A program made the position numbers and the translations under genes. DNA of 61,503 nt, counting the filler, from Dugesia japonica (Eukaryota), in assembly GCA_001938525.1 (NCBI GenBank). It is 5 parts of 5 records of this genome, joined end to end, with 100 filler letters (N's around TTAATTAATTAA, not from the genome) between each part and the next. Parts side by side here need not be neighbours in the genome. Positions count along the whole stretch, not along the records: positions 1 to 22,411 come from MQRL01633926.1; 4 more parts are not named here. The stretch is one strand, 5' to 3'. The notes beneath the pieces were generated by a model. The model made no database searches. It had not been told where the DNA came from and saw only the letters and a list, made by a program, of their open reading frames with translations. This document shows, in pieces, positions 3,626-30,945 of this stretch. How positions within the stretch are numbered: position 1 is the first letter of the stretch; the number at the start of each line of letters is the position of its first letter.

Positions 3626-3830
3626 TTATATATGATTTTCTGGACACCCCAACTAGGTTTAGATTTGCCGGTATTTTTAGAACGGCTCTTTTCTGATTCT
3701 ATTGGTGCTAGCACCGATTTTAATAATTTTTCTATGAATTTTAGTGCCATGATTGGCAGTTATTTTTAGGGGAGCACCTGACATCGGTGTCTTTGTTTTA
3801 TTTTTATTTTCTGACCACTGATTGGTAGAA
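3626..3830 (-). promoter_or_regulatory. Pol II promoter of LTR copy a (CCAAT boxes + TATATAA)
   Basis: AAAATCATATATAA preceded by three CCAAT boxes; same architecture at 10732-10930 and 17729-17936. Confidence 0.65.
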
Positions 3831-6138: not shown

Positions 6139-6149
6139 AATGTGCCGAG

Positions 6150-6760: not shown

Positions 6761-7251
6761 AAATATCTAAACGGAGAATGTGGTAAGTGAGATAATTACA
6801 TGTCGGGAGCTTGAATATGATTCTCGGAAATTAAATAATGAGGAGAGATCTGTTTTAATGTTCCTCAGTAACATGTTCCTTTCTTGGTTNNNNNNNNNNN
6901 NNNNNNNNNNNNNNNNNNNNNNNNNNNNNNNNNNNNNNNAAATCTGATAATAAACTTATTAAGATCATATGATATTTTAATTAATTTTGTTTATTGAAGT
7001 AAATAATCATTAACCAACTAATCAATTCAGTTTAATTTTATCGTAAAGTAAAAGTCGTTAAGATCTCAGTGAAATAGAGACGTCATGTTGTACAACTTTC
7101 ATATGATCATTACATCTAAGTTGTATTCGGAAAGCTATCATCGAACATGTAGATATAAATAAATAGTTATTGCTGTTGAGAGAGTATTATTGTGTTTTAG
7201 TTTTGTATTATCAATTTCATTGTTTGTATAAGCTGTGATAATAAGAATTGA

Positions 7252-7452
7252 GATGGTAGAAGTACTGAGCAGAGTATAAAAATCAAGTATCAGGATAGAG
7301 AATTTCATTGTAAAGACGCGATGCCACATAGTCGCACAAGAACTCTGAAACAGATAGGCATGGTACAGAGGTACCATCAACGCTTGTGGTTTTTCGGTAT
7401 GCCCCTGGACATCGTAGTGAGAAATATAAATTATGAGTACAAGAACAACTAA
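7252..7452 (+). pseudogene. Family F paralog fragment inside the nested LTR
   Basis: DGRSTEQ..EFHCKDAMPHSRTRTLKQIG..; open 66 codons after an in-frame TGA. Confidence 0.4.
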
Positions 7453-7535
7453 TGATAAAATCAATTCAAACAACAAAATAAAATTTAAACTGTCATTTAA
7501 AAATTCCTAAAAACCCAACAGGATGTTACGTCAGG

Positions 7536-7891
7536 TTAAGGACAAGAAGTCTGCTTTGATTTATTAGTCATCAACGGCTCTAAAGGCATTCTCCTTAATT
7601 CGAGGAGATCGTTGACTAGTTTATTCTCACGGTCATGAAGGGACCGGATGATCTATTTAAATGATTCTATTTGACTTTTCCACAGTCTTTTCTGTGCATG
7701 GGACGCTTCGGCTTCCTTATGAAACGCGATGCATTTATTTTTATATCGCTTGACCTTACTTTCAGCAGCGACTGTATCGGCCTCCCAACGACGTTTAGCG
7801 AGACTGTAGACATCTTATGTCATGTTTATATTCTCGCTGTTTTCTCGCACCTGTTTCGTTGGTGCATTAGAGTGATGGAGTGAGAAGTGCA
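7536..7891 (-). pseudogene. LTR ORF family D (helical, ~118 aa), begins TG directly after the acceptor
   Basis: ttctctttgtag|TG CAC.. HFSLHHSNAP..YSLAKRRWEAD..ENKLV..NKSKQTSCP; homologous to 21259-21616; two internal stops. Confidence 0.75.
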
Positions 7892-8118
7892 CTACAAAGA
7901 GAAATTAATTTAATATTACTTTTATCTACTAGAATTATTAATAGATAACAGGGTTCAAATGAAATCTATTACACGTGATCAAGAACGAGTATAGGACTAG
8001 CATATAGCCTAGTAAACTGATACATAGTTGAGAAGAAAATGAACACTCAATTCAGAATGAATGTGATTTATTAACATCAAAATAAAAGAAAATAATCAGT
8101 GAAAAACAGCAATTACAC

Positions 8119-8484
8119 TCAGATTTCATGATAAACAGAAGAGTCAGTGTTTTCCGAGCCACCTCCACTTTCCATATTCCGGACATTCCATAACGTATTA
8201 CTTATGAATTCGCTTAGCCCTGAGAAGGAAGGTAGATGAGATGTAGTAATTGGAATGATGCAAGGGCCTTCCCATCACTCACTAGGGGTACGAAAATCAG
8301 CATTATTGACTGGGTGCTCCGTTGTAGTGGTATGGTATGTTTCACGGGCTCGATTGGAGCCGGTCCAATCATAATAAGCCTGGCGCTCGGTGGCGTCCCA
8401 ATGCCTTTTTTTATGGGTTTTTGTACTGTTTAAAGATCATATTTCTGGTCCTACGGTCCAGTAACATCTCCCATTTATATTCCA
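8119..8484 (-). pseudogene. LTR ORF family A, begins TG after the acceptor; internal deletion and stops
   Basis: tttgcag|TG GAA TAT AAA TGG = (M)EYKW; WDATERQAYYDWTG..*WEGP..FISNTLW; AATAAA at 8067-8072. Confidence 0.75.
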
Positions 8485-8640
8485 CTGCAAACTATAAATA
8501 GAAATATAAGCATATAATAAGAAACAATTTGATTTGAAGAATTTATTCTACCCATAATAAAATCTGTAAGGTATGACAATGAAATTAACAGAAATAGGAT
8601 ATAAATAAATAACAATGAGATTGGTCATAGAATTTATTGT

Positions 8641-8847
8641 TTAAAAGAGAAAACAACGGTAGTACGAGGTGTCGTCCAAATCCACTGATCATGGAATAGG
8701 GTATAATTCCACGAAACATTGGAGATCCGTTTCATCCGGACGTAGGATAAGAGTTCGGGCTAAAATGTGCCCAATTAGCTGTTTCCCATGAACCCTTTTT
8801 CTCTCGTGTCGATTTAGCCTTAAGATCCTCGGTAAAATGTCGGACAT
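8641..8847 (-). pseudogene. LTR ORF family B with one internal TGA
   Basis: MSDILPRILR..KQLIGHIL..RPDETDLQCFVELYPIP*SVDLDD; AATAAA at 8633-8638. Confidence 0.75.
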
Positions 8848-10384
8848 TTACAATAATGAGTCAAAGTTCTAGTTATAATAACCTTTTAATTTCCCAGAAC
8901 CTGTATTACCATAAAAATAATACTGTTGATACTGATTTTGTAATGAGAACTGATGTAATTATTTTAACCTTCGAGGGATCAAAGAAGAAATTTATCAATT
9001 TTGGATAATGGTACCGTTTCAGGCAATAATAACAAAATCAATCACGAGTACAGATGATTTTAATAGTGATACAAACATTAATCCCCTTGACAATACTACC
9101 GTCATCATTAGGCTATCAATGGTCCTCGAGATTTTATTAATAATAATTTTGCTTAATATTTCAACCATTTTAGCTGATGAGTAACGGAAGTGGAAACACA
9201 TTTTGGTGCTTGTGCTATTATTAAAACTGATTTTAATATTAATTATCGTGCTTGTGATGGAGTAATGTCGGGAATTATAATCATAGTTTATGCCAAAAAT
9301 AGTGACACCGTTACTAGTTCCGTAATGAACTAAGAATGGTAGTTCCAATGATAACAGGTGCGGGGATAGTCACCATAAAACTAGTCACCGACATTAACTG
9401 GCCATGATAATGATAGGGAAATGGTTCCACTCCATTTTCGCAAGAAAATTTGGCGACTCAATCAATGTTACAATTGTTGCCGTCTATAATAATCCAATCA
9501 CTATTACTCACAACCATAATGATAATAAAATAACAACGCTAATAACATAATTAAAATACATAATTAAAATATTTTGATGTTAATAAATCACATTCATTCT
9601 TAATTGAGTGTTCATTTTCTTCTCAACTATGTATCAGTTAACGTGGATATCCTTTCAGTATTAATGCTACTAGTAGTTATGAGATAGTGGCAGTCACAAA
9701 ATCACCAATAATGATAATCAAACTAATCATGTCGACTCTAAAAACATGTTTTAATTGTGCCTACTCCGTGCTAAAATATATCGATGATGAGATGGCTTAG
9801 TGTAGTAATGTTGAAATAACTCCATATTATGCGGTCAACCTGAGTTACTCTGCTGAGGTGAACTTAATCATTAATGTACCAGTTATGAGCCAATATAACT
9901 AAATAAGCAGTAAATTGGAGAAAACGCTCATTTAATGAATTACACTAAGATTATTAATTTGCTACTATATGTGACTGACCAAATAAAACATAATTGAATT
10001 CTAATTGATGAGTGGGTGTGTTCATACGTGGCCTGAAATAATAAGACAGCTGTTAATCATTCATCAATCGCGAAAACTCGTGGAACTAGACATCGCAATT
10101 TTATTCAAGCGTAATGCGTTCTGATGGGCAATGTGAATTATGGCTATTATTGTCAGATTCTACACTTATAATGGTTCGATAACATCATGAATGTGATAAA
10201 TTTGACTAATATTTGGTCATCGCTTTATTCACGGAAAATGGCAGTGTATATGGCATTTAGTTACTAAAAATAGAAAACATTTTATAAATCTTTTTCAGAA
10301 ATAAATTTTATGGATTAAATAATTTATTAATTATTAACTTGAATTTCAACATATAACATACATAATTGAAAAATAAAAATTCTT

Positions 10385-10930
10385 ACTCACTATTAAAATA
10401 AAACTGAAGTAGCTGCAACGGGTTTTCTGGATAATTTCCTAGTTAGAAACAAGTATCCGAATTAAATGATATTGAGAATTGCTTCCTTGAATTTAAAAGT
10501 AAATTTTGATTAAGTTGTAGGGAGTATTACTTTATTTTTCTGTTTCCCAACTATTGTTGTGATTTCACTCGTAGATATGCCGTAAATCCGTAATTAATAT
10601 CTATGAAATTTGTGCTTGAATGGTGGCGCTCGCAATGACAATTTTAATAGTCAATTTTTTTTAAAATAGTAATAGCTGTGATAGCCAAATTTAATTCAAA
10701 ATTGAGGTAATTTCATCTAAAATTTGGTGGGTTTATATATGATTTTTCCAACCCGATTTTTTTCGTATTGCTTGCCTATTTTTGTTTCTAATTTCTTGAT
10801 TTACATTGGTTCTGGTGCCAAATTTTTGATTTTTTCTAAGAATTTTTGATCTACTATTGGTGCCTATTTTTGGAGCACCTTGTGATTCTTGTTTCTTTAT
10901 TTCACGTTTCTTTTCTGGCCTCTGATTGGC
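10385..10930 (-). promoter_or_regulatory. Promoter, leader exon and splice donor of LTR copy b
   Basis: CCAAT boxes, TATATAAA 10732-10739, CCGTTGCAG 10413-10421, exon-final A then GTGAGT 10390-10385. Confidence 0.65.
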
Positions 10931-12419
10931 CCATTCTTCAAAACATTTTATAGACCCTCCTGATAATGGTAGGGCATTCTTGTTGGAAAATTGTAACATT
11001 TCTTCTTCAAATTTTCTTTCTAGGGTCTTTTGTGATCTTCCAGTACAAAAAATGATTTTCTCTTAATTTTAATTCTTTTTCCTTAATAAATTAATTAATT
11101 TTCCATGATGATTTTTCCATTATATTTTATTACTTTTTTCTGATTTCAGGCAATAAATTATAATTATTCGCCACTGGCTTATTATAATATTCTTCTTCCA
11201 TGATTTCTTCCGGACCCTTTTCTGATTATTAATTAGTCAAATATTGATAAATTGGTGGTAGTTATATTAATCTTTCAAATCCTATTTCTTCTTGGCACCC
11301 CAATTTCGGCACCTAGAGATATTATCCTTACTATCGGGTGTTTCACCCCAACAAAACCTAACATTTCAATAATTTTTTTTTATCAAAGGTTTCCTTCGCC
11401 AATATCTTTGTGTCTTTGTACGCTATGTCAGTGTTACTCTGTTCTTTTGTCTGCAACTCAAACCCTCTTCACAGAATTATCACGTTTACGAGCAAAACTG
11501 CTCTTCGATCTACATAAACATTTATGATATTTGCTATCACCGGTTGTTTTTGATTCGGGTTAGTTCTCTCTCTTGTAGACACCATTTCGGTTTTTGCCTG
11601 AAATAAAAGCTTTTTTGTCTATACTATCTTATCTTTAATACTTGTTGTTTAGCTTTCATTTCCACTGCATACCAATCAATACCTTCCATGATAGCATTTA
11701 CTTTGAACTATTGATCTCTGAATAATCAAAGCCTTATATAAAGTTACAAACAATGATAACAATAAATTCAACACAACGAAAATATTAAAATACTTCCAGC
11801 CGTACGGAGCTTTTCATTGGTCAAATTATAACACTCATACACTCAACACAACTACGAGAGAGTTGTAGGATTTCATACTTTATGCGCATAATGAATATAT
11901 TTGCAAAATTTGCAAAATATAAAATATTTAAAAAATTATAAAATTGATTGAATATTTAAACCTTTCAGGAAAATAAATTTTCAATTTCCATAAAACTTCA
12001 AAAATTGTTTTAAATAAATGGATATGAATAATGAAGTTTTTCTTGCTAACAATAATCCGTTATTTAAATAAATTGCACATTTTTGCTTTTAATTTCTTGG
12101 CAACTTTTGCCAGTGCAACATCCAAAAGTTTTCATGTTCTTCTGCTTGTTAGACCTCTCTTTCATCTACCTTAGGTTATTAGATGCTGCCAACAAATGTT
12201 GAGATCTACGATGTATTTCCATCAAATTATCAATTTATTTCCCTAATCATTGAAGCCACTTTCATACACTAGGTTATTACACTGTGATAAACAAATCACT
12301 CGATACTTCTAAATATTCATAAATACGTAAACACTTTCAGGGACATATTTAAATAAAACAACAGTTAATAAATCCAAACCAAAATTTTCATCATTTTATT
12401 TAAATAAAAATATTTTTAC

Positions 12420-13320: not shown

Positions 13321-16300
13321 ACTATACGAAACAGGTTAAATTATCTTTTTGTTGTCTTGTTAATCGTAGTCACATGAAAGATTTTGCCAATCTCCTGTCA
13401 TTAGCGTTAACATTATATGTCCATCTGACTCGTTTGCTACAAAATTTACTTCACGTTTTTTATTTACAGTACCTCTACTGCTACAAGCGGGGCATCTTTT
13501 CAGTATTGGAAAATAATCTTCAGTTCATGACCACCCGAGTTCCGAATTTACAAAGTCTTGTGTTTTCCAAATACATTAGAGTGGGTACTCCTAATAAATG
13601 TATGGTACATGGTTGATTTATCGCATGGATCCAAAGATTCGATGTCCGAGTTTCCTTCTTTATGTCTGGAAACACATTAAATAAGCTAGCCATTTGCCGA
13701 CTGTTAATAGTTGAGAGGTACATCATTCTCTAGGAGCTTTAAAAACTTGAATTGATTCGAGATTTCTATTATTTTATAATTCTGTTAATACTTAATTTCC
13801 GAAAAGAAATTTTTTTCGATTTGCCCATAAGTGTATTTGCCGAGATCTCTGATTTTGACAACAGACTCTGATTTGTTTGATTCTACTTTGTGGTATTTGA
13901 TAAATAAGTTGTTAGCCATTTCTGAAAATAAAATAATTAATTTTTTATCACATATCATGATATGTCAATCTTGGAAAATTCTATCTTGCATAAATCTAAT
14001 ACTTAGATTTTCTATGGTAATTAGTTTGAGTATAAATATAGATATGATAAATAAATATATACTACTTTTAAATTTAATTTAGGAGCGGCTTATTCATGCT
14101 TCCATTTTATTTACGTTTTCTGAGATGAAGCTAAGTCGCAAGTTTTTAAACTTGTATTGTGCTCAAAGCTATACGACAATCACACTCATAAAGCTAATTG
14201 CTGCTATCAGTAATGTTATCATCAACTGCATGCGTCTTTGTATTTTATCCTCTGTTTTTAACTGTAGTATTGAGCTAAGGTCACCATCGGAAATACTTTA
14301 TCATTGATAATGTTATTCTGATATGATTTAATTTTATTCTAGAAATCCGCATTTAGTCGTCTTAGAATAGGTTTCTTCTCTGTTGGAGTACTTGTAGTTG
14401 TACTAGTTATCTAACTAACTGTAGCACTGCTAGACATTGCTCTTTTTGTAGTTATTTTCGAATCTAATTTCCTTCTTTTAGAAAACACTATATATTGACT
14501 GAATATTTTCTCTGGTTGCCAATAATAATAAACATTTATTGCAGTAATTAACCCTTTACCCTAACTTTCAACGGGGAATCTCTAATTTAAACAAATTACT
14601 TGATTTAGTAGTATGTTTGATAACTCATCTGTTACTAGCTTATCCAAATTCACAGGTAATCCATGATTTTGCTGAGGTATATTCATTTCTTTCTCCTAGA
14701 CTACTTGTGCTTCTTAATTCTGTTGATTTAAATCATCAGTTACTTCTATCGCTATCAAAAGTATTAAGTTGACTTGGTGGTCAATAGATTATTATTACAC
14801 TGATATCTTCTGATTTTGCTGTTGGAAAGGAAAATTATCTAATACTCCATAACAAGCTATCCACATACTACTTTCAAAAGGAACTTCTCGATTTATTTGG
14901 AGAATATTAAAGTAAAATTATCGTTGAATCAGTCGGGATTAATTTTTAGTTAAAGAAGGAATCAGAGAAAGGAATTTATTATCCCTATCGATGTGAACCC
15001 GTATTTATTAGCAGAAAAACGAAAGAAAACCGTTGCAGAAACCCCGCATCTTGATATAGAAAGTAATTATGTTGTTATTATTTTATGTATTAAGAAATAT
15101 TAAATTCGATAATAAATGTCTTTATTCTAATTTATTATATGTTTAATATTATTATTTTTACTTAATAGGTACATAAAATAAGCAATGATTTTAAAAAACA
15201 ACTTTTATTTAAAAAAAAAATAAAATTATTTTTGCATTACCCATTTATGACAAATTCAAATGTTCCCGATCATCTTTTGTTTCATCATAAAGAATTGACA
15301 TATACAAAGATAAAATCCATCCAATAAGTTCCCAGAAAAGTCAATAGCATGATCATCATAAGATGGAATCATCAGGAAAATAACAGTTGTGTAAGTAGGT
15401 ATGTTGGTAATATTGTCAGTAACTGAGTCACTAGAGTCTTCACATTTTAGCGGTGTGTATATAAAAAAAAGAAATCGGTGGATTTGCTAGCAACACTGAT
15501 ATGATCTATTCCATTTCTTCATGAATGATACTTACTGTAGTACACACACACTTGCGACTTACACATTCATGATGATGACTAGTCAACTTCTTAGTAATAC
15601 TATCAGTAACTTGTTATGTCAGAGTTGTGGGTTTACCCCAGTGTGTATGGATTTTTCTGTTAACCGATCCGAATCTGATCAATTATTGAGATATCGTTGG
15701 TAATGATATGTGTAACGGAATATTTTGTTGCATGGGTAGTCACAGTTCTGACGGTTACGGTAACATTCACCACTGCCATGCTAGATCATAGATACCTCAC
15801 ATTACTCATTTCATTAACTTTAAAATTGAATCTTCCTATTGATAATAACATTGAATAATTACTAATTCTAACTCCATCATTCAGATTACTATTGTTAATA
15901 GCATATTTAAAGCGGGGACTCATAACTTAATGTTTTCTTAATCGGATGTAGACTGTGAATGTTTTCTTCTTTACACTATGGATTCCCCCTTTTCTTTCCC
16001 AACAGTTGATAAGAGACTTATGAATGTCACTAATTAATCACTACAGTCGTTATTGCCACACGAATTTATATTATTATTATACGAAAGTTAAAATATTCAT
16101 GACTTGGAATGTTTTAATTTTAATATTAATTCTATTATAAATTTTATTAATCATAAAATTCCGGTTACTATGATTGACATAGGTTTTTTTTCATTAATAG
16201 GTTGGGATAAGCCCCTTTTGGGCTGATATTACTATTAAGGGTCGATTCAATGTAAGGATAGCTTACCCTCTCTAGCACCCCGTCAGTTTTTTGATATTTA

Positions 16301-16364
16301 AAAAATTCGCGTTATTATGCTAATACTGAATTTATATTTTTTAGAAACTGAATTCTCCACACTA

Positions 16365-16549
16365 ATGAATGACATTTTAATAAAAACTCTTCTGTTGATC
16401 AAAAGAGAACGAGAGCGGTCTCGTAAGAAACAGTTAATCGGGCAAATTTTGGCTCCCACTCTAATCTTACATCTGAATTAAACGGATCTCTAGTGTTTTG
16501 AGGAGTTGTATCCTCTACCCTGGACGTGGATTTAGATAAGGAAATCTGA
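16365..16549 (+). pseudogene. LTR ORF family B
   Basis: MNDILIKTLLLIKRERERSRKKQLIGQIL..TDL*CFEELYPLPW..VDLDKEI; stops and a frameshift. Confidence 0.75.
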
Positions 16550-16583
16550 TGTTTGGTTTTGAATATATAATTTTATGATCAAG

Positions 16584-16832
16584 TCGCAACGAAATCGCTA
16601 AATTAAAAATCTTGACATCATCGTCCAAAAACCGGGAGATCTGGCAGAGCAGACAAAACAGTTACTCGCCCATAAGGTTGAATTCCTCGAGCAATACATT
16701 GCTGACCTTTCTAGTTGACTCGAGCAAGAAACATGGACTCACTGGAATAGCAAGGATGATGAAGCCATTTTTGGTTTCATGTCAGTAAAGCCAACCCAGT
16801 GGTTAGATCGGGGTGCTCTAAACTTCATGTAA
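16584..16832 (+). pseudogene. LTR ORF family C, 3' part
   Basis: LDIIVQK..QYIADLSS*LEQETWTHWNSKDDEAIFGF..PTQWLDRGALNFM; AATAAA at 16841. Confidence 0.75.
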
Positions 16833-17073
16833 TTGAAAAGAAATAAATCTTCATGATAATTTATTATTAACTTGCTTGTTTAAATTAGAATATAGGGAAA
16901 ATAATCAACCCGAATTAAAGGTATACGAGTGAGCACTCCAAGTAAGCGGTGGGAGTCAACCGCTCTATGCCGATAATCTAATTAGGGACATTAGATAAAT
17001 TCTTGAAAGGGTTCCCTGAGGGCTGTTTTTCCCCAGCCACATTCTTTCTCAATCCAAACTCAGATGGGACCCC

Positions 17074-17128
<55 letters not shown>
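17074..17128 (+). repeat. (AAT)n microsatellite between two LTR copies
   Basis: Pure AAT run into an N gap. Confidence 0.95.
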
Positions 17129-17728
17129 NNNNNNNNNNNNNNNNNNNNNNNNNNNNNNNNNNNNNNNNNNNNNNNNNNNNNNNNNNNNNNNNNNNNNNNN
17201 NNNNNNNNNNNNNNNNNNNNNNNNNNNNNNNNNNNNNNNNNNNNNNNNNNNNNNNGGGTGAAACACCCGTTAAAAAAGGAAAATAAGGCCAAAGGCCCAA
17301 ATCAGCAAAGAAGAACAGCAGGGCCATTACATTTACCAATAATGGAATTCAAAAGGAAAAGCAATTAAGATCTGGGGTAGGATATAACGAAAATAATCAT
17401 TAGAAAAGAATAAAATAAAATTGGAGATGGATATGAAGAACCGGGTGAATAAAACTAGCATTCATCAAAGATGGGAATTAAAAGGTATTATTAAATTAAT
17501 AATAAAAGTCAAGAAAATCATTATGGGAAAATAATTAATTAACAGAAAAATATTAACTAATTCTGAAATACAACGAAGTAAAATTAGTCAAAAATCCGTT
17601 TTATACGAATAATTCTGCTCAGGAAAATAGCAGAGGCTTTTATTAAGAAAAACTGAAAAGGAAAAGTACCCGAGCATTAGGATTTTGCAACCAGAAAATT
17701 ATATCACCATTAGGAGGGGGTCTGCAAA

Positions 17729-18256
17729 GATTGGGCCAATAAGGTGTTAAGAAAAGAAAATGTAACAAAGACCCGATCATCACATGTTGATTTAAAAATA
17801 GAGGCCAATAGAAGTCCAAGAAAGCCATGAAAAATCTGAAAAATCAACACTAGAACCAATGAAAAGAAAGAAATTCGAATTAAAAATAGTAACCAATGAC
17901 AATGATGCCGAGTTGCATCAGAAAATCGTATATAAACCTCCAAAATTTTAGATGAATTACCTCAAAAAAAATTTGTGTGTAATCTGTTAGTTAATACAAC
18001 GATATACTATAAACTCAAGAAAAACAATTTTTGGAGAGAACACTTTTGACCATTGTTATCACGATTAAAGTGTAAGGCAGAATTATACTTCAATTAATTT
18101 ACTAATTTGAATTTACCCCAAAATTATAGTAGACGAATACTCTAGTGGTAAAAGAAGAAAGTATAATAGGAAGACAGAAATTCACGTGTATTCAGGCCAG
18201 AAAGGAATCCCACCATTATCTAACCGTTGCAGAAAAAAATTTAAGAAAGAGTGAGT
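17729..18256 (+). promoter_or_regulatory. Promoter, leader exon and splice donor of LTR copy c
   Basis: Several CCAAT boxes, TATATAAA 17929-17936, CCGTTGCAG 18224-18232, A(18250)|GTGAGT. Confidence 0.65.
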
Positions 18257-20294
18257 AATAATTTCTATTTTCAATTTGGTGTAATATATGAAGAAATGTG
18301 TTAATAAGATTCAATAAATAATTTGCTATAATTTAACTTTCGTTTAATGATTTGTAAAATGCTAAAGAAAAAAAAAATATTTTTTTTCCAGACAACATTT
18401 AGATACCGCATGCCAGACCGCCGTCGGTGATCATACGATCAATAATGATAACACCAAAATTTTGACGATATCATGAAGCTATGCTGCATGTAAGAAAGCA
18501 AAAACAAATTGTCTGATAATAGCCGTTAAAATTGCTCATAGAAATTCTCTGGATCCGAGCGTAATGTCTACTTTCCTCACGTTAGACGAAAATCAATTAA
18601 ATAACAACTGGCACACTCTCTTTATAGTCGTGGATATGGCAACATCACAATCCAGATACACTTAGGTTTCTCACACACACGCGTAAGCAATCAAGATTGA
18701 TCATTGTAAACTTAATGCAACCGCTCAGCAAAAGTGTGTGTCCTGACCTGGGCAGAGGAATTACCATATGTTCTCAGATATTTTTTGCCAATATCACGTT
18801 ATCGTCGTATTTTCTTGTTTAGTTGGATATGATTTAACTGTTACGAATGACAGATGTAGAAACTCTCAGTTATCAGTATTAACTAATCATGTGACTGTTT
18901 TAATTACCGCTAAAAGTGTCAATCTATTATCAGTCTTATCTTCAACCTATAGATGACAATCGAGAACGGTCTGAAAAACATTGTTAATTTTATCAGACAC
19001 TCGTTCCGTCACTTCATCAGAAATGTAACTGTTAGGGTCATCACAGCTTGTTGATAAAATGCATCAGACGTTGGTAAGAATATAAATCTCGACATGATGA
19101 TTCGCAAATCACACGATATCGACTGTTAATCACGCCATGAAATCATTGTTATTATTATCTTGAATCGCTGTTAGTCCTCAACGTTAGTGATAACGTAAAT
19201 AGTCAAAATTAATGTCCTTACCACAAATTTGCTATTATAAATCATGGTCATAAGTGTTATAGGTATTATTATTCTTCTGACCATTATTAATTACCATTAT
19301 TATTGTTGTCTCATTGATTCAATTATTAAAAGTTCCCTCAATAATATATAGTTATCATGATTATTATCTCATAATGTTATCGGTATTAATATTGTTATTA
19401 TCGTATTATCATTATTATTACTAGTATTATTAACATTATTATTATCAATATTATTATTATTATTATTNNNNNNNNNNNNNNNNNNNNNNNNNNNNNNNNN
19501 NNNNNNNNNNNNNNNNNNNNNNNNNNNNNNNNNNNNNNNNNNNNNNNNNNNNNNNNNNNNNNNNNNNNNNNNNNNNNNNNNNNNNNNNNNNNNNNNNNNN
19601 NNNNNNNNNNNNNNNNNNNNNNNNNNNNNNNNNNNNNNNNNNNNNNNNNNNNNNNNNNNNNNNNNNNNNNNNNNNNNNNNNNNNNNNNNNNNNNNNNNNT
19701 CCTAGCGTCATTATTATTATTACTATTCGTGTCATCATTATTATTATGGTTCCTATTAGCGTTATTATTATCAACATCCTTAAAATTATTAATATTATTC
19801 GTATTATTATTGCTATTATTATTAATATGCCCATTATTATTATCACCCTTCTTAGTATATTATCATTATAATGCGTAGTGTTACTATTATTATTTCTTTA
19901 CGGTTATAGTTATTATGGTTATAATCATTGATACTATTAATATTAATTTTCTTATTAGCCTGGTGCATGGAGTTAGTAGGTTAATGTTATCGACCTTAAC
20001 GTTAGAGTTCCCTCATTACTACTGATAATGTTGATACTATCATTGTAAGTAGTANNNNNNNNNNGTTAAATGATATTGTAAATAATTCTATGGTTTTACT
20101 AGCGTTAGTCACCTCACTTTTAACTCCATGACTACATGCTCCTGATTCCACGGACAGAGCTAATAGAAATACACCTAGATCTCGCCCATATTTTAATAAC
20201 GAGAGATGTCATCAGTGGTAACCACTTCATTTAAGACGGTTCAGGAGAACTGAATCATGAATTTAATTTATAAATATTTGTTTTACTCTAGTTG

Positions 20295-20477
20295 ATGCCG
20301 GCAGTATTACGAGACACTCTTCGTCTAATAAGGAAGCAACGTCAAACTACTCGCCTGAAGCAGTTGATAGCACACTATTTAACGAGTGGTAAAGTTGAAC
20401 ATTCCTACAAGACTGATCTCCAGTGTTTCGTTGAGATGTTCCTACTCGAATATAAAGTGGACATGGATGAGGAATAA
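20295..20477 (+). CDS. LTR ORF family B, intact 60 aa
   Basis: MPAVLRDTLRLIRKQRQ..KQLIAH..TDLQCFVE..VDMDEE; acceptor at 20290-20291; stop overlaps AATAAA. Confidence 0.75.
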   Translation: MPAVLRDTLRLIRKQRQTTRLKQLIAHYLTSGKVEHSYKTDLQCFVEMFLLEYKVDMDEE

Positions 20478-20681
20478 AAGATCGGTCTTATTTATTTGCG
20501 GATACTTCGCATGAAATAAACCTTAATTAATGTGTTTGATTATGTGCAATTCTTATAAAATAAACCCTAAATATTGTTTTAATTGCGAATAATTCTTATG
20601 AAATCTATAAAATATTATTATTTTATAGATTGTAGTCTTTAAAAAAAACCTTACCAGTTATCATTCTAGGATCAGCATCAA

Positions 20682-21110
20682 ATGGAATATAAGTGAGAAG
20701 TAAACCTTGATATCCATTCAGGTAGAACGGTGTTTAAAAGGTATCAAAACCCGTATAATCACGACGCCGGAGTGCTGGTAGATCACTCCAACCTCTCTAC
20801 TGAACAAATGACAGACGAAAGGCGATGGGATGCGACTGAGAGAAGCGTTTATTACAGCTGGTGTGGTCCTAGAAGAGACAGAGTCGCGTTTCCCCCGGCT
20901 CCACTTTCTTTCGAGAGATCGGCTGAAGTACCGCAGATAGAGCGTATGTGGCATGATGGGCCTTCATTAGTCGGCATCACCACGAACCGCTTACCCTCAA
21001 CTTCCCAACTAACTTCTTTCGTCCAGAATTATTTATGGAGTGCTCAAAATGAAGCGTCTAGTAATAATGACGAAAATACCAAAGAAGAAATTTCGGAAGC
21101 TTCGGTGTAA
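20682..21110 (+). pseudogene. LTR ORF family A with W5>TGA
   Basis: MEYK*EVNLD..FKRYQNPYNHDAGVLVD..; acceptor at 20668-20669; AATAAA at 21124. Confidence 0.8.
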
Positions 21111-21258
21111 AGCTGTTGAATAGAATAAATATTTAATTAGGTGTTTGCGTTATCTGACTCGTTGTTACTGTTGTTAGCTATAAACCCAGTCTGTCTTCAT
21201 TTATTAAAATATAAATCTACTAATATCCTGTCCTTCTTTATTTGTATTTGTATTTCAG

Positions 21259-21616
21259 CGCATTTATCCTTGAATAGATCTCATGCCCCGAATAAAAAAT
21301 TACGTGAAACCAGTGAGGGCATAGAGCTCACGTGGGATTTGTATCGGCTCGCTAAGCGGGGTGGAAAGCCGAGACTTCAGCAGCGGAAGCTAAAGTTAAT
21401 CGCTATAATCGGAAATGTTTAACGTTTAAATCCGAAGTAGACGCGACTCAGAACCAAGAGAGGGTTTGGAAGTTGCAAGTCTAAACCTTCACCGAAATAA
21501 TCAAGTCTTATCAGGAGTGTGAAAATAAACTAATGGAAAATATATTGAAATTGAGGACAGCCATACCTTTGACCCCACTCTTGATAGACAAAGGTACCCA
21601 GACTAGCCGTTCCTGA
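21259..21616 (+). pseudogene. LTR ORF family D, ends DKGTQTSRS
   Basis: tatttcag|CG CAT..; YRLAKR/WKAETSAAEAKV..ENKLM..; one frameshift, one stop; AATAAA at 21646. Confidence 0.75.
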
Positions 21617-21735
21617 GTTTTCGTGTTTAAATTTTTATTAACCCTAATAAATTGTTTACTATTTGTATTTTTTCTAATCTACTTCTCCGATTTTAGTTAT
21701 GGAGGTTGTCTACGTGAACTATAATTTTTCTTTAG

Positions 21736-22118
21736 TGCCTTGAATTGTATTCCCGACTAGTTTGCGGAGATATCACCGGATCATGCGCCGTCTGTTGCTG
21801 GAACGTCACCTAAAGCGTAAAGCAGACCGGGCCTTTCTTAAACATCTGGCCCGGTGAGACCAATTAATAAAAAAGTTGGATTTGATAGTTAAGAAACAAA
21901 ATGAGTTGGCGGCCCAAACAAAGGCCCTTGAAGCAGAAACAAAACAACTGCTACACAGAAAGAGATATTTTCTAAAACAATATATAGCGGACCTTTCTTG
22001 CCAGATTGGTAATCCAGCTTGGGTTCAATGGAACGACGATGATGATGTCGCGGCGTTCAATTTTTTGACCACCGACCCAGACCAGTGGTTAGACCAAGGT
22101 GCTTTGGATCTCATCTAA
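21736..22118 (+). pseudogene. LTR ORF family C, begins TG after the acceptor
   Basis: tttttctttag|TG CCT..FPTSL..LLLERHLKR..LIKKLDLIVKKQ..QYIADL..WVQWNDDDD..DQWLDQGAL; two TGA at Arg positions; AATAAA at 22130. Confidence 0.8.
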
Positions 22119-22208
22119 TTTTCAATTAAAATAAAGTTTTATTGTTCAATTCGTTTTAATCTTTGATAAAGCCGTGTGAATAGTGAAAAGAGTGAACCCA
22201 AATTCAAA

Positions 22209-22366
22209 GGCCTATGGATGCGCACCTCCTATCAAGAGAGAGGTCAACCTCCATAGACTGAATACCTAACCTAGGGGCGTTAGGTTAAATTCTTGAAAGG
22301 GTCCCCTGAGGGCTGTTTTTCCCCAGCCACCTTTTTCTTCATTTCGACTCAGGTAAAACCCCAACA
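22209..22366 (+). other. Conserved multi-hairpin domain at the LTR 3' end (also 16920-17077, 4410-4567 minus, partial 30725-30762)
   Basis: Compensatory base changes between copies in three stems. Confidence 0.7.
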
Positions 22367-22511: not shown

Positions 22512-22574
22512 TTTTTGAATTTCGTGTTTACCTACGCCATTATATTTGCCTTAATCCGGTGTTTCACCCCAACA
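22512..22574 (-). mobile_element. 5' tip of another giant LTR copy at a contig edge
   Basis: TGTTGGGGTGAAACACCGG on the minus strand, abutting TTATTATT. Confidence 0.7.
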
Positions 22575-24131: not shown

Positions 24132-24651
24132 ACCTTTTATTATCGTTATTACAGTTATTCTCCTCATTATCATTAATATTCATATTAATATTGTTAATAA
24201 AAGTCTTATTATTTCTATAGTTGGGTTGATAATCTCCACACAGTAACTGGTAATTTCGTTATCAATTACCATTAGTATTAGAATAAGTTTTACCAATCCT
24301 AAGAGATATCACTCTTTTCACTAATAAGTTAAGGAATATTGCCATGCTAAACTTTAATAACTAGAAAATCATTCGACGAGTTATATCATAATCTAGAAGA
24401 AACATTCTTAAAGGAAATAATTCCCATCCAGTCTCACAAATACCAGAAACAATGACTCAATGAAGTGAGATTGATGGACTATCAAGACAAAGAACAAAAA
24501 GAAGCATCACGATTATCATTAGCCCGAATCGATGAGAAACTAACAGCCGCCCAGAAACTCCACTATACAATTAAGAAGGAAATATATCTAAAGCTAACTA
24601 ATCGATTGGTAGAGTTATTGGAAGTTATACAATTGGTTACCAATTTCGAAA

Positions 24652-26040
24652 GTGAATGGACATAGTGGTTGCCAGTTAACTATGACTGCGTTAAATCAAA
24701 CATGGGTTAATCACACTACCAAGTATTGTTGGATAACTCGGAAGGAAATGAAACTAACATTCGCGGGATTAATGGTAGAAGTCCTGGAATCGGCACTCAG
24801 TCGAGCAGGATATCAATGCTTAACAGATAAATTTGTATGCACTCTCAGCGCTCTAGTGAATTTTAAGGCCAGAAAAAGCTATTTATACGATTTTGGGCTA
24901 AAACCAGGAGAGGAAATTGAACTCATAATATTCGATAAACACCCTGGTATAGATTATGATGTGTGGGTAACGAAAACCGGGAGATCAGCTCTAGAAATCA
25001 TGGAAGAATAGGTAAATCCTATTAAAATTAAGATACTCTCCATAGTATTAAGAAAGAAAGACCATCTGACAAAGCAGNNNNNNNNNNNNNNNNNNNNNNN
25101 NNNNNNNNNNNNNNNNNNNNNNNNNNNNNNNNNNNNNNNNNNNNNNNNNNNNNNNNNNNNNNNNNNNNNNNNNNNNNNNNNNNNNNNNNNNNNNNNNNNN
25201 NNNNNNNNNNNNNNNNNNACAAAGTACAAGCTGAGAAAGAAAAGTTACCCCGAGAAACTTATTGGATTATAATGAATAGAATTTACGACATATACGATGA
25301 GATTTAAATACCGGAAGAAATCGAAGATCAATAGCTCACAATTAGACAGAAATATGCAGTAATTTACCTGTACAAAAGTAAGGCCATAGATGCTGAATTT
25401 TAATCCAATCCTAAACATTGTTATTATGAGATAGAGATTATCCATAACAATGAGAAACGTTATGTAAAACCAATTACTCGAAAAATATCACCACTAGTGT
25501 ATAAACCGAATATCATAAACTGCTCCAATGTATTTGGACCTCAATATGTAATGTCAGACGGGTCGTGGATAAAATTCCGTCAACGAATGGTAGTGGGGGT
25601 TGAGCCCCGGAAATTCTCAATGTTACAATTAAACGGAGGAATTCAATTCACCCCAATTGATGTAAACAAAAGAGGTATTTACTGCAAGAAAAAGCCAGGG
25701 AATATATGTTATTTCCCGTCTGAAGAATGCAGATTTTGTCAAATATAGTGCAATTAACCAGTGGAACAAACATAGACGGACGTTTTAATTATGATGCACT
25801 ATTGTCAGCCGATCATTTCTAGAAAGCTACCGAAAATGTCATGCGGAAAATGCGGGGAAGATTCATAATATTTCGTCAAGCTATGGCAGGGTTGTTAGGA
25901 GTTATGTTAATAATTTTAGTAACACGAGTGGTGATTACGCAGTTGTTTGCTTGTTTCGAAATCTACAAGAGAGAACAGAAAGTGAATTGGAAAATGATAA
26001 CTGGATTATTTCCATTTTTAGNCAAAATTATGTTGCTCAA
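24652..26040 (+). pseudogene. env-like class III fusion glycoprotein remnant (chuvirus-G / herpes-gB type)
   Basis: 25350-25683: VIYLYK..HCYYEIEIIHNNEKRYVKPITRKI..IINCSNVFGPQYVMSDGSW..GIY, then TM block FIIFRQAMAGLLGVMLIILV..WKMITGLF. Recognised by eye only. Confidence 0.65.
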
Positions 26041-26643
26041 CAGCCACTCAAAGTATTTCGACAGAGATAAACGTTTCATTTACAAACTCGGACAAATAAG
26101 AAGATTGAATAAGAAGGTTGTAATGCAACTCCGGTTGTTGTGTGAGGAAATGAGCAATAGTAAAAAGAAAATATCATATTTCAACCAATTTAAGGAAAGG
26201 TTTAAGAATAAAAGTGAAAGTAGTAGTAGTAGCGATGATGTCAGGAGGAGAGCAGTGGAATGCCACATGCACCAAGTTATAAAACCGCCATGGAGTATGA
26301 TGCAGAAATTTAAAAACAGCAATATATAAAAACCAGTAAAATGTAACGATTGAAAAATGCACTGAGATTTGGAGGAAATGAAAATACACCAGCACCTGCA
26401 CAGATGTATTATAACGCATATCCGCAGCATGGTTGGCAACCCATGAATCAACAGCCACAACAAGTACGGGCACAAGGTCCAATGTACAACGATCCTTATA
26501 TGAGGTCACCACAAGCACCTAGTATGGCATTGTTAACATAAAGTAACCTATCAGCTATTGACAGAAGAATTACTGACAAAAATTTGCGTTCTCCAAATAA
26601 CCAAATTACTAGCGATGACAAACTGGAAACTCAAACCGTATGT

Positions 26644-28800
26644 ATGATGATCTCCCAAGGATAAAAGTGAACGGAAGATGGGTTATAGCCATCATTGAAA
26701 CGGGAGCAAGTATGACTCTAATTCAGAAGAGAATATTAGAAGAATACAGATTTTTCAGAATAAAAATTACTAAAGGAGTTATCATTACTACATTTGGAGA
26801 ATAAATATCACCATTAGGAGAAACAATCTGTGAAATGGATAGCAATAGAATCTGACTATGGCATAAAATGCAGATAATGAATGAACCTCCAAATTGTGTG
26901 CTCAAAATACAACAGTTTTTAGGCCTCGCAAACTACTATCTTAAATTCATCAAGGATTTCGCAATAATCGCGAAATCTTTGCAAGAGTTGGTCAAGCAAG
27001 ATACCGTATTCATTTGGGGACCCGAAGAACAGCAATCCTTTGAAACATTACGCGATAAATTAATTACCGCACAAATTCTGATTCATTTGGATTTCAAAAA
27101 ACCATTTATACTAGCTACAGATGCTAATGGATTTACAATGGGAGCAGTACTGAGTCAATTGGACGAACAAAGGAGAGAAAGGGGGATTGCTTATTTTAGA
27201 AAAAAAATCTAAGGAGCAGAACTAACTAAATAAACTAAATTACAGTACAACGGAACGGGAGATCATGGCAATTGTGAAGGCCACCAAGCATTTTTGATCA
27301 CTTATACATGGTCATGAAGTCTTAATATAAACCGATCACCTTCCTATCTCATTTATGACCCAAAAGCCGTTACTTTGGAATAGAATGGCTAAATGGCAAT
27401 GCAGGATTATTGAACACTATTGAAATTCAAAAATGATAAAGCAAATTCAAATGCCGACTGTCTATCAAGAATTGGCTGACACGAGGAGCCCGAAAATTCC
27501 ACGAATGACTCAGAAACGTTCACTTTACGAGAATTACTTGAAAAGAAAGTAGGAATGGTTTATTTTATATTAGCCGAGGATCAAAATTTTGATGTGTTAA
27601 AACAAGCGCAAGCAACTGACGAATAAATAAAGATCATTACGAAATATATGGAAGATTACAACCTAGAGAAACTGGAATGCGAACCTAGGATGAAGGAGCA
27701 TTTCACGCCTTCACTAAAAACTGGTTAACAGCTCAGGATGGTAAAATACTGTGGTCGTTATCCCAAAATCCAGTCGGGACAAATTATTGGGAAAATATCA
27801 CAATGGAGTGTTGGGAAGACATGTCTCAAAAGAAAACATAGTCGAAATTAAGGCAGAAATATTACTGGCCACACATGACAGAATCAATAAAGGAATGAAT
27901 TGCCAAATGTCAAATATGCGCTGCCAGAAAAGTAACAGAAAAACGAGTAAAAGCAATATTAAAGCCAATCGCTGTTCTCGCGGCACCTATGGAAATAATA
28001 GCTATGGATGTAGTCGGACAATTACCGCCAACACTGAGTGGAAACATATATTAATATATATATACTAACAATCATGGACTACTTGTCAAAATTTCCTGAT
28101 GCATTTCCGATTAAGAATCAAAAAGCAACCACTATCGTAGATATACTGGTACAAAAAGTTTTCAGTAGATATGGTACACCAAAGAAAATCGTAACTGATA
28201 AAGGAAAGAATTTCATGAGCAACATATTAGCAGAAATATTGATCTTCCTCAAAATACACCAATTTAGAACATCACCTTATCATCCACAAACAGATGGGCT
28301 AACGGAACGTTTCAATAAAACATTGATTAATATGTTATCTAGTTATGCACAAAAGTAACAGAATAACTGGGATATACACAGCCCTCAACATGGAAATGTC
28401 CATCCATCAACAAAGTATACTCCATTTGGACTTATGTATGGTAGATAATGCAACATGCCAATTAATTTGGCATTTCAACCGCCTATAACTCATATTAAGA
28501 TAAAACAGACTTCGCTGCCAATTTCAAAGAAACCATGCAGAAAATATGGAAACAAGCCAAGGAAAATGTAGGGTTTTACCAAGAAAGTTACAAAGATTTG
28601 CATGATAAAACAGCAGCTCAACATGCATTCAAGAAAGGTGACATTGTATTAATCAATTTACCGGATATTTGTGTTGGTACTACGTCAAAGTAAGCCCGTG
28701 GCAAGGTCCATATGAAGTAATTGAAGTAACCAAAACTAACCTCCAAGTTCGGAAAAAAGGAACTTATTAGAGAAACCTAAAATTTATCACGCCAATCTGT
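26644..28800 (+). pseudogene. Ty3/gypsy pol remnant: protease, RT thumb/RNase H, integrase with GPY/F motif (RT core deleted)
   Basis: AIIETGAS; QFLGLANYY..TDANGFTMGAVLSQ; NYSTTERE; YYWPHM..CQIC; MDVVG..TDKGKNF..YHPQTDGLTERFN; WQGPYEV. Confidence 0.92.
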
Positions 28801-29711
28801 GTAAACAGACAGCCGTGACAGATGAAATTACNNNNNNNNNNNNNNNNNNNNNNNNNNNNNNNNNNNNNNNNNNNNNNNNNNNNNNNNNNNNNNNNNNNNN
28901 NNNNNNNNNNNNNNNNNNNNNNNNNNNNNNNNNNNNNNNNNNNNNNNNNNNNNNNNNNNNNNNNNNNNNNNNNNNNNNNNNNNNNNNNNNNNGCTAATTA
29001 AGTCAGCGGGTTAAGGCATTGGGTACTACAACACTGTACCCTATAATACCACAAGGAACACATATGCCAGTAGCAGAAAATAGCTGTGCTCACTTCTCAC
29101 AATTAACATTAAAACAGAATTATAGAAGATAACTAGATTTTTGAAAAATGGTGTTTTTAAAATATGCCGACAAACAAAGGAAGGCCAAGAAAGTAAAGGA
29201 TAGTCAGATTTTGAATCAGTATACTCATACCAAAGCCGAAAAGAAAAACATAGAAGCCAAGGAAAACACTAAAACACTAAATACCTCCTTATCTACCAAG
29301 GAACTAAAGCACTCGAGTAAAATATGCATACTTAAAATAACAAATACACCAAATAATAATCATCCTCTTTAATCACAACAGACTATATCTATAACTAATA
29401 ATAGATCAATTATTGAACTACAAAATATTAAAACGTTATTTTTTAGTTCAGATAATAAAATGCATCGATCACTTATAATCGAAGCCATGAAGTATCCTCT
29501 ATCCAATCATGTGCCAAAGAAACCAAACACCAAGGCATGAAGAAATATGTATCCATATTATACGAATAACATGTCCNNNNTCCGCAATACAACTGGAGGA
29601 GAGTTGTCTTCAATGCATCAAGAAAACACAAATTATATTTAAAAATGCACTAAAGGCCATTTACGATCAACCAGCATGGGTGTCCAGACCAGAAAATTGG
29701 TTTAGAAAAGA

Positions 29712-30419
29712 TTGGATGGATCGCGAATTAAAGCACCAATTCAAGCACCTATTCATCAATCTATCATTAAAAAATTATATCTGCCATGCACAGATATCTA
29801 CAGTGATGAATTATTAGCGTCCATTCACGTTTTTCACAGTGCATTGGTACAATGGAACTGGGTAAGAGTTTATGAACCTCCAAATGTCCAATTACTATGG
29901 GGAATGGTTGGACCACCCATTCACATAAAGTACGAATTAAAAGATGTAGCTGAATTACACATAAAATCAGATAAACTAACCCCCAGAGAATCGGTGTCAG
30001 ACAATATCGAGAATACTAGCAAAGAAATACAACAGTTTATGAAAATAATGGAAAAGTCATTTAGTGGCCAAGTGAATCAAATGGAAGAGGAAGAGAAACA
30101 ATTAGCTAGCGTAGCCTTAGGAGGGATGGAAAGGATGAAAATGACAATAATATATGATGAGATAGATCAAGCAGAGAAAGAAAAACCAGAAAATGAGATA
30201 TCACAGAAAAACACGAGTATAATTACAATGGAAGTAATAATTATAATGGCTTTGTTATTATGGGCAATAATCAACAGTTGGTATTATGGCATATTAATTT
30301 GGTTGACCATGAAACTAGACAAAAATATGGGAAAAGGATACCCAACATCAATCGTAATTTATGGAGTCGTGGGAATAATCTTACTATGGCTAGCATTACC
30401 AGCACTGGCAACTCATTAA
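29712..30419 (+). CDS. Unknown post-integrase ORF remnant with two C-terminal hydrophobic segments
   Basis: 235 open codons downstream of IN on the same strand; truncated at the junction with an LTR fragment. Confidence 0.5.
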   Translation: MDGSRIKAPIQAPIHQSIIKKLYLPCTDIYSDELLASIHVFHSALVQWNWVRVYEPPNVQLLWGMVGPPIHIKYELKDVAELHIKSDKLTPRESVSDNIENTSKEIQQFMKIMEKSFSGQVNQMEEEEKQLASVALGGMERMKMTIIYDEIDQAEKEKPENEISQKNTSIITMEVIIIMALLLWAIINSWYYGILIWLTMKLDKNMGKGYPTSIVIYGVVGIILLWLALPALATH

Positions 30420-30420
30420 A

Positions 30421-30762
30421 TACAACCTGGCGGCACAGACAAAAGCCTTATAGAATGAAAATAAATTGTTATTGCAAAGAAAAATAGATTTCCTCTAGCA
30501 ATACATACCCGACCTCTCTCGTCAGTTAGGTAACCCCACCTGGATCCAATGGGACGACAACGACGATGTTGCCGCCTTCAGTCTTTCCATAACTGATCCA
30601 GACCAGTGGTTAGACCCTGGCGTGTTATATGAGTTATAAATATTATATTAATAAATGTTTTCGCGTATCGTTAGTTGAATTTTATGTGTAACTTAAGGGA
30701 AAATAGTAAACCCAAATAAAAAAACCTATGGGCACGCACCTCCCATTAAGAGAGAGGTCTAC
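30421..30762 (+). mobile_element. 3' fragment of giant LTR (family C tail, polyA signal, start of hairpin domain)
   Basis: NLAAQTKAL..QYIPDLSRQLGNPTWIQWDDNDDVAAF..DQWLDPG (stop 30639), then ACCTC..GAGGT stem. Confidence 0.8.
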
Positions 30763-30945
30763 CACAGTAGGATGATAGTGGCACACCCGCCCACTTGCAT
30801 AGCGCTGGGCGGAACCCCCCCGGGGGGGACTCGGAAACACATTACGCTTGTGCTATGATTTTTGGGCTGGTTATTTTTTTTCTAAGATTTTTGGGATCAA
30901 AAAATTTTTGATCGGATCAAATTTTTTTTTGATCGGATCAGTTTT
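30763..30945 (+). mobile_element. Terminus of a different element interrupting the LTR end
   Basis: LTR homology stops at CACAGTAGG; GC-rich hairpins follow, then GATC-spaced subterminal repeats. Confidence 0.45.

Follow-up and report, generated by a model that had tools for sequence, protein, structure and literature searches.

Long terminal repeats (LTRs) are usually seen as regulatory DNA that encodes no protein, and a solo LTR is seen as a dead promoter. A unit of about 5 kb in the genome of Dugesia japonica (assembly GCA_001938525.1) has the ends of an LTR and holds an array of small protein genes, which raises the question of what kind of element it is and how such genes would be expressed from it. 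The unit lies at 17256..22366 (plus strand) of the window, by which we mean the whole 61,503-nucleotide stretch of DNA analyzed here. We consider it reasonably probable that it is a decayed solo LTR of a Burro-type Ty3/gypsy element, that is, one in which the envelope gene (env) precedes the protease, and that it carries four selected genes, called B, A, D and C, served by a shared leader and alternative last exons. An earlier note on this DNA had described a giant multigene LTR, and its claims are taken up where our results bear on them.

Self-comparison places six insertions of one repeat family within the first 31 kb of the window (1 to 30.8 kb), the number of full or partial copies that the earlier note had counted. 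The copy under study, copy e, is flanked by AAT microsatellite and contains gaps at 19468-19699 (232 N) and 20055-20064 (10 N), while a 127-N gap hides its first 5 bases; with N gaps inside, its length of ~5.1 kb is an estimate, and copy b/c minus its insert measures ~4.5 kb. Copy b/c (4410..11353, minus strand) comprises B, A, D, 2.5 kb of other DNA, C and the end, and is the sole copy with both ends. Copy a (1..4224, minus strand) has the 5' end, a promoter (TATA at 3632), a donor at 3271 and the genes B (1463-1281), A (1074-670) and A' (477-61), all three with open frames, before it runs off the window. Copy d (~14900..17077, plus strand) shows a leader motif at 15030, a donor at 15063 and B at 16365, then a deletion into C, and the end; its promoter is not recognizable. 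The two remaining copies are a 63-bp 5' stub beside a gap edge (copy f, 22512..22574, minus strand) and a fragment with the last ~71 codons of C, the polyA signal and the hairpin with part of the end (copy g, 30420..30775, plus strand).

In all copies with genes the elements follow the order promoter-leader-B-A-(A')-D-C-end, as had been described. Because B-A-D-C-end is free of gaps in copy e from 20065 and promoter-B-A-D is free of gaps in c, this order is independent of scaffolding. Copy number of the genes varies, as the earlier note had said, with two amendments: the A and A' pair of copy a is an ancient duplication (28% identity, synonymous sites saturated), and both A and D are indeed gone from copy d, where one deletion takes A, D and the first ~39 codons of C, so that their loss reflects decay. 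The exact terminal 8-mer is present at five termini (5' in a, c and f, 3' in b and e), which bears out the proposed 8-bp ends in part only: the 3' end of d has one mismatch, the 5' end of e is cut by the gap, the 3' end of g is truncated, and both ends can be read in b/c alone. At the 3' terminus of copy e, CCCCAACA (22359..22366, plus strand) forms a 9-bp inverted repeat with the 5' end of the family. In b/c, a comparison of one end with the other showed no terminal repeat of 20 bp or more, whether direct or inverted.

Three of the six readable termini (d3', e3' and f5') adjoin AAT/ATT repeats (17077-17128, 22367-22411 and 22575-22590), and such microsatellites are possibly a target preference of the family. 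Some copies have local peculiarities of their own. The DNA between D and C in copy b/c (5050-7500) contains a degenerate tandem array of ~40-41 nt at 6306-6760 and lacks a conserved ORF (open reading frame). In copy c, an 81-nt stretch over the polyA region of A (8004-8084) recurs inverted and 94% identical in the predicted intron (9570-9650), 1.5 kb off, possibly through a template switch. A unit of ~145 nt is repeated about three times at the start of the predicted intron of copy a (2840-3275).

The genes of copy e all lie on the plus strand. Gene B (20292..20478) follows an acceptor ending at 20291 and has an open 60-codon frame (20295-20477) with AATAAA at 20473. Gene A (20670..21129; acceptor ending at 20669, frame 20682-21110, AATAAA at 21124) has a stop at codon 5; gene D (21259..21651; acceptor ending at 21258, AATAAA at 21646) has a frameshift near 21360 and one stop; and gene C (21736..22135; acceptor ending at 21735, frame AG|TG, last AATAAA at 22130) has two stops. 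B is thus the only open gene, A, D and C each carrying stops and/or a frameshift, and copy e is a fossil. The four families, in contrast to this copy, bear the mark of past purifying selection. When all 19 pairs of copies were compared codon by codon (6 for B, 6 for A, 1 for D and 6 for C, none dropped), the ratio of nonsynonymous to synonymous differences per site (pN/pS) came to 0.18-0.63, with a bootstrap interval below 1 in 19/19 pairs, which share copies and were aligned as proteins and are therefore not independent. Pooled values were 0.36 for B, 0.58 for A, 0.41 for D and 0.33 for C, and synonymous sites were saturated across copy pairs (pS 0.72-1.04). The two shifted sense frames gave 1.02-2.93; the antisense frame that shares third positions gave 0.44-0.71, always higher than the sense frame. 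The spacers behave differently from the proteins: 8 of 10 spacer pairs do not align (z<2 against 3-mer block shuffles), the exceptions being c-e (z 3.6) and e-g (z 9.8), the latter at the level of low-complexity controls under stricter nulls. Both the contrast between alignable proteins and diverged spacers and the past selection on four families, as the earlier note had them, are borne out by these comparisons.

None of the four proteins could be assigned, in agreement with the earlier note. Pfam gave nothing above its curated cut-off for B, A, D or C; the family D looks like a coiled coil, with weak Pfam coiled-coil matches under the cut-off. A HMMER search with the alignment of A against 1.84 billion representatives returned one match, an unnamed 94-aa protein on a 512-bp contig. 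Among proteins of near lengths no homologs were found with A, with C or with the alignment of B, longer or fused forms lying outside this search and D having been compared with Pfam only. ESM Atlas offered nothing usable for A or B. The model of A has a mean pLDDT (predicted local distance difference test) of 58, with residues 1-60 at 76-89, and its N-terminal half is predicted to form a beta-hairpin and a helix; it had no Foldseek match at E<=0.001 in PDB or BFVD, and its best Z among VIA folds was 2.9, which is no evidence either way. B is modeled as a long basic helix followed by a short helix (pLDDT 64), while C combines a basic N-terminus with a coiled coil and a tail rich in Trp. Related loci numbered 0 in metagenome contigs by the end motif, 0 by B, and 0 in viral contigs.

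How could such an array be expressed? Upstream of the genes, copy e has a predicted promoter (17736..17934, plus strand) with CCAAT boxes at 17736, 17805, 17856 and 17893 and a TATA at 17929, ~0.68 kb into the unit. Aligned sets of 3-4 CCAAT boxes and a TATA stand 0.6-0.7 kb from the 5' end in all three copies with a 5' part (a, c and e), the block of e being 69-74% identical to those of a and c. From 30 nt after the TATA to a donor extends a predicted non-coding leader exon (17959..18250, plus strand), which contains no ATG, carries CCGTTGCAG at 18224 and ends in A. The leaders of the three copies (331, 319 and 292 nt) have 0 ATG where ~5 would be expected in each, and the fraction of ATG-free windows among random 292-nt windows is 0.0086; in sequence the three align like shuffles (0.48-0.53 vs 0.49-0.50). 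CCGTTGCAG is found four times in the window, once per leader-bearing copy, and in 4/4 copies a donor-like hexamer preceded by A lies 18-57 nt 3' of it; overall, 11 of 39 donor-like hexamers in the copies are preceded by A. The donor GTGAGT at 18251 would open a predicted first intron (18251..20291, plus strand), a fast-evolving ATT-rich spacer.

Signals at the genes fit this arrangement. Of 12 gene starts, 10 have a strong acceptor no more than 30 nt away (null 0.148), strong meaning that it reaches at least the 90th percentile among 896 AG sites. Of 12 gene ends, 9 have AATAAA no more than 47 nt from the stop (null 0.126 for a distance of up to 40 nt), and two others have it at 69 and 101 nt. 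The start of gene A in copy c is ambiguous. In D there is no Met within the conserved first 23 codons, and the frame opens two bases after the acceptor in both copies; in C of copy e the frame opens at the acceptor, and homology with b begins there, 16 codons before the first Met. A leader exon ending in A would complete the start codons of D and C upon splicing, and both appear to obtain a start codon only in this way. The last AATAAA of copy e (22130) sits 236 nt before its end, so that the TATA ~0.7 kb in and the final polyA signal ~0.23 kb from the end are where the earlier note had put them, and the promoter-leader-gene array it had outlined is seen as motifs aligned across copies. The splice signals and the split start codons were absent from that note. 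Taken together, the unit is laid out as a single spliced transcription unit would be.

Behind the last polyA signal, 74 nt 3' of this AATAAA, lies a conserved hairpin of 51 nt with an internal loop (22209..22259, plus strand). Changes on both sides occur at 6 of 12 pairs across four copies. The 17-pair structure has 96.8% of its cells paired, with 0/500 shuffles as high and slid controls at 24-41%, figures that are tempered by the hairpin having been derived from the same four sequences on which it was tested. Its folding z is -2.1 to -2.6 in e, d and b. The structured end described earlier comes down to this one covarying hairpin; an unusually stable 3' end as a whole is ruled out, since the last 217 nt fold like shuffles (z 0.05). 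Rfam gave 0 matches at E<=1 over 16800-22600.

We regard it as quite likely that the unit is an LTR left by LTR-LTR recombination. Its TG..CA ends with the 9-bp inverted repeat are those of an LTR, and Pol II (RNA polymerase II) promoter motifs stand upstream of a polyA signal, conserved as sequence motifs in 3/3 and 4/4 copies. LTR status is nevertheless a matter of inference, because paired LTRs, a primer-binding site (PBS) and a polypurine tract (PPT) were not seen. Its neighborhood points the same way. A decayed and internally deleted Burro-type internal region (24300..30419, plus strand) contains, in sense order, a fusion glycoprotein, a protease, RNase H, an integrase zinc finger and core, and a membrane-protein ORF. 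The Monjiviricetes_fusion pieces of Pfam upstream of the protease have E values of 1.7e-9 and 4.2e-7, and the protease (E 1.9e-4) is under the curated cut-off. The env-before-protease order of Burro is found in this region; a single frame is unjudgeable in a decayed copy. Copy g, with C and the end, adjoins the region directly in the same orientation, which is the position of a 3' LTR, and its C is the closest to that of copy e (pN 0.15). Copy g may therefore be a 3' LTR joined to the internal region by deletion, and the connection to a giant Burro-type element drawn in the earlier note gains support from its place directly behind the env-protease-RNase H-integrase region.

Within this region, the protease nearly abuts the RNase H region (26640-26870), and a reverse transcriptase domain was not found there. 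The ORF after the integrase (29700-30419) has two hydrophobic segments and a signal-peptide-like end exactly at the break to C; it has no Pfam match. Burro elements are marked by host-like domains (SUMO/Ubl, BCL2, MATH, BIR, dUTPase) as well as the reverse transcriptase; in this internally deleted region, a segment at 24682-25008 that by eye had seemed ubiquitin-like is without database support, having no Pfam or PDB match. We also considered 23.2-24.3 kb as a remnant of a 5' LTR and rejected it (score 211, vs up to 216 for Markov controls and 202 for unrelated ATT-rich windows).

The mechanism that we propose would work as follows. In an intact element, whose solo LTRs would be the product of LTR-LTR recombination, Pol II would quite probably start ~30 nt after the TATA at 17929; an ATG-free leader of ~300 nt would be spliced to B, A, D or C, and each mRNA would end at its own polyA signal. 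The AUG of D and C would form only at the junction, and unspliced RNA could not yield either protein. The genomic RNA of the full element may be made from the same promoter, remain unspliced and read through all polyA sites into the PBS, with the hairpin, present only in read-through RNA, as a mark for export or packaging; we hold this with rather less assurance, as a serious possibility. The hairpin would be absent from all small-gene mRNAs because it is located behind the last polyA signal. A need for export or read-through would arise because the genomic RNA passes the donor, four acceptors and four polyA sites once, however U3, R and U5 are drawn. More tentatively, one or more small basic proteins, B or C, might act like Rev or Rex, favoring genomic RNA at the expense of the spliced RNAs that end early, an analogy suggested by this need, by the basic helices and by the hairpin. 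A start near 17960 would make R and U5 together ~4.4 kb long, R ending at the polyA site used in the 3' LTR; the ~4-kb R region demanded earlier is hence not required, as the first polyA site in use could already mark the end of R. The boldest reading combines all of this: a giant animal retrotransposon would have an LTR that forms a complete regulatory gene unit with alternative splicing, several last exons would take the A of their start codon from its one leader, the products would include an export or anti-termination factor encoded by the element itself and binding the hairpin, reverse transcription would have to copy ~4.4 kb of strong-stop DNA, and each young solo LTR would be a four-gene cassette standing free in the host genome. 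As a package, this is in our view doubtful.

Several observations weigh against the solo LTR with its spliced gene array. Paired copies around pol were not seen in the window, nor was a 5' LTR partner found there upstream of g, and the junction of g is a break in the middle of C, where adjacency by chance is possible in a repeat-dense window. PBS and PPT are absent at the six readable termini, as would be expected for solo LTRs, and none among the 23 of 1195 matches listed had a PBS, a PPT or a loose contig end at a terminus. The flanks of b/c match at only 3 of 4 bases (a possible 4-bp target-site duplication, TSD), and those of copy e are AAT repeats beside a gap. As to expression, copy d has an ATG 72 nt upstream of the donor, B and C of copy b/c are without a strong acceptor, and D of copy c is without AATAAA within 500 nt. 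The p of 2e-7 for the acceptors is overstated, because the score was devised post hoc and the copies share ancestry. The hairpin of copy g is no better than shuffles (z 0.49). For a Rev/Rex role of B or C there is no supporting homolog or fold (sequence searches for all, with the model of A compared by fold and B by sequence only).

RNA evidence is scant as well. Three raw RNA runs (6-25% of each) mapped to 14800-22411 gave 592, 128 and 62 reads, none of them at 99% identity; 98% diverge beyond the matched stretch, most lie on an ATT-rich patch, and depth over A and D of copy e is at most 0.15. Over 376-5100 there were 69 and 20 oligo-dT reads, none at 95% identity, with depth up to 2.4 on the conserved core of B and up to 4 on the end of b. 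The few reads on the B core and the ends are 80-95% alike and partially aligned, and no splice joints appeared among the matches listed (15 of 34 and 15 of 31 joints), nor did these runs have reads at the acceptors. Such reads fit transcripts of diverged relatives rather than of these copies. Contig depth is far higher over the promoter, B and the ends than over the intron, which is not to be read as a copy number, and run X9, which mirrors the DNA profile even over the intron, was set aside as evidence of expression. The suggestion that solo LTRs are autonomous expression cassettes thus fails for the copy under study, in which A, D and C are broken and which no RNA read matches at 99% identity. 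Burro1 is held down by SMEDWI-2, and smedwi-2 knockdown is reported to derepress it (PMC8532177), so the silence in these runs says little about young copies.

What else could the unit be? Since all readable copies stand alone and neither PBS nor PPT was seen at the six readable termini or among the loose ends listed, it might be a non-LTR, non-autonomous element moved by a Gypsy-like integrase or transposase (a Ginger-like or short-TIR DNA element, TIR being terminal inverted repeat) with accessory genes, the position of g being chance. TGT ends and 4-bp TSDs are features of Ginger (PMC2836005). Against this stands the inverted repeat of 9 bp, vs 40-270 bp in Ginger1 and ~50-180 bp or more in Ginger2, which makes the Ginger identity raised in the earlier note unlikely. 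The flanks, moreover, are not CCGG or CCGT, and the unit is without a transposase: no ORF or Pfam match for an integrase-like one was found in it, though non-autonomous copies would lack one too. A promoter at one end with a polyA signal and stem-loops at the other is the anatomy of an LTR, and g abuts the Burro-type region in sense. We judge a DNA element to be rather unlikely. Still harder to credit is that the ORFs arose by chance in a repeat that encodes nothing, or that they are what remains of an internal polyprotein. That three of the four genes of copy e are broken, that there is little RNA and that the sole database homolog is the 94-aa unnamed protein would suit it; the purifying signal in every copy pair at saturated synonymous sites, and distinct starts, stops, acceptors and polyA signals whose positions are homologous, have largely refuted it already.

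Other alternatives accept a gene array and differ in how it is transcribed or processed. The array might lie in a 4.8-kb U3, with the CCAAT/TATA block serving the small genes only; the genomic RNA would then begin close to the 3' end, and the hairpin would span the interval from the last AATAAA to a remote cleavage site, as happens in human T-lymphotropic virus type 1 (HTLV-1). Mouse mammary tumor virus (MMTV) sag is expressed from an internal promoter. Such an arrangement would dispense with ~4.4-kb strong-stop DNA. The 74 nt between the last AATAAA and the hairpin would suit it too: HTLV-1 and HML4 are described as having a stem-loop after the AATAAA by which the polyA site is brought closer (PMC2664473). 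It is nonetheless unlikely: over the last 236 nt the four-copy alignment shows neither a TATA nor a CCAAT cluster, the sole conserved promoter block is at 0.7 kb, and three polyA sites in the 3' LTR would remain for the genomic RNA to pass. The LTR, or another mobile unit with the array, might also be an operon resolved by spliced-leader (SL) trans-splicing instead of cis-splicing, since flatworms including Schmidtea resolve polycistrons in this way, with candidate operon gaps of at most 300 bp (PMC12582326), and the gaps here are 204, 148 and 119 nt from a stop to the next start or acceptor. Flatworm SLs, however, end in AUG (PMC12582326), and with such a leader D and C would be read in frames other than the conserved ones, whereas a conserved cis donor ending in A explains both; cis-splicing is favored because of this conflict, and an SL operon seems very unlikely.

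The spliced array in an LTR has partial parallels elsewhere. In the adenovirus major late unit, one promoter and a shared leader serve alternative acceptors and separate polyA sites; it belongs to a DNA virus and is without homology to the unit here, which lies inside a retroelement end. The Rev protein of human immunodeficiency virus and its response element RRE combine a regulator with an RNA element in the same scheme as would apply here. Likewise, HTLV-1 Rex and RxRE pair a small basic protein from spliced RNA with structured RNA near the LTR polyA signal (PMC2664473), a likeness by analogy, as no sequence or fold similarity of B or C to Rex or Rev was found and binding to the hairpin is hypothetical. 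Coding capacity in long LTRs is shared with MMTV sag, lentiviral nef, bovine foamy virus and HML2/3/4/8 (PMC2664473), which have one ORF each, either within U3 or antisense (HML4 has up to three untested ones), in LTRs of no more than ~1.3 kb; the unit here, in contrast, has four selected sense families downstream of a promoter, with their own acceptors and polyA signals, in ~5 kb. The sORF1/sORF2 genes of the Drosophila MDG1 group are likewise small and accessory: they sit toward the 5' end of a Ty3/gypsy RNA, and an early polyA site yields a short transcript. They differ in lying between LTR and gag, in being unspliced and in sORF2 being membrane fusogen-like (PMC11952523); none of B, A, D and C was matched to these sORFs or to any Pfam family. 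In the env of springer-subclade errantiviruses the start codon is also assembled by splicing (bioRxiv 10.1101/2023.08.03.551782); as that text has it, AU joins the env exon of one gene, whereas here a single A is predicted for several alternative LTR exons.

Among known elements, Burro/GYPSM1, giant Ty3/gypsy elements found in dugesiid planarians, are closest in the order of env, protease, RNase H and integrase in the region beside copy g. Their env lies between gag and protease in one polyprotein, and their terminal repeats are treated as non-coding with the accessory ORFs internal (PMC6431247), in contrast to the gene array in the terminal unit here. A total of >30 kb with an internal region of up to 25 kb, in thousands of copies (PMC6431247), leaves room for multi-kb LTRs. 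Env before protease also occurs in flatworm errantiviruses (PMC13524379), and for six Schmidtea elements (Smed_errantivirus_1-6) supplement 1 of that paper gives no LTR or PBS. PMC11410931 touches on Burro merely in passing. LTRs with a single ORF are already known, and so are elements in which small accessory genes precede gag and an early polyA site is present. The literature searched described neither a gene array in Burro LTRs nor a four-gene spliced LTR unit, though an earlier description is possible; what we add are the predicted splice signals, split start codons and spliced-unit anatomy of a four-gene array in a probable LTR.

If LTRs of this kind carry a selected four-gene unit, recombination would leave complete transcription units behind, and a very abundant repeat could give its host unannotated small proteins. 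For retroelement biology, a genomic RNA that has to pass one donor, four acceptors and four polyA sites would be a puzzle. Burro1 is said to support stem-cell survival (as cited in PMC13465017), and accessory genes of Burro-like elements may touch host biology.

The window as a whole is AT-rich eukaryotic DNA with assembly gaps and decayed retroelements, and it holds further features. Exons of a host YchF/OLA1-type GTPase lie at 46862-47750, with a short intron near 47592-47645. The minus strand at 55786-57220 carries part of another LTR retroelement, which has DUF7041 (gag-like) and RVT_1 and is unrelated to the one described above. A MITE-like (miniature inverted-repeat transposable element) short element occupies 22574-23104, with imperfect inverted repeats at 22574-22704 and 22966-23104 (68%). 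At 23581-24132, a 251-bp duplication (98%) flanks a 50-N gap and is probably an assembly overlap. Finally, a tandem array with a unit of ~26 nt and a higher period of 78 nt is present at 32395-32933.

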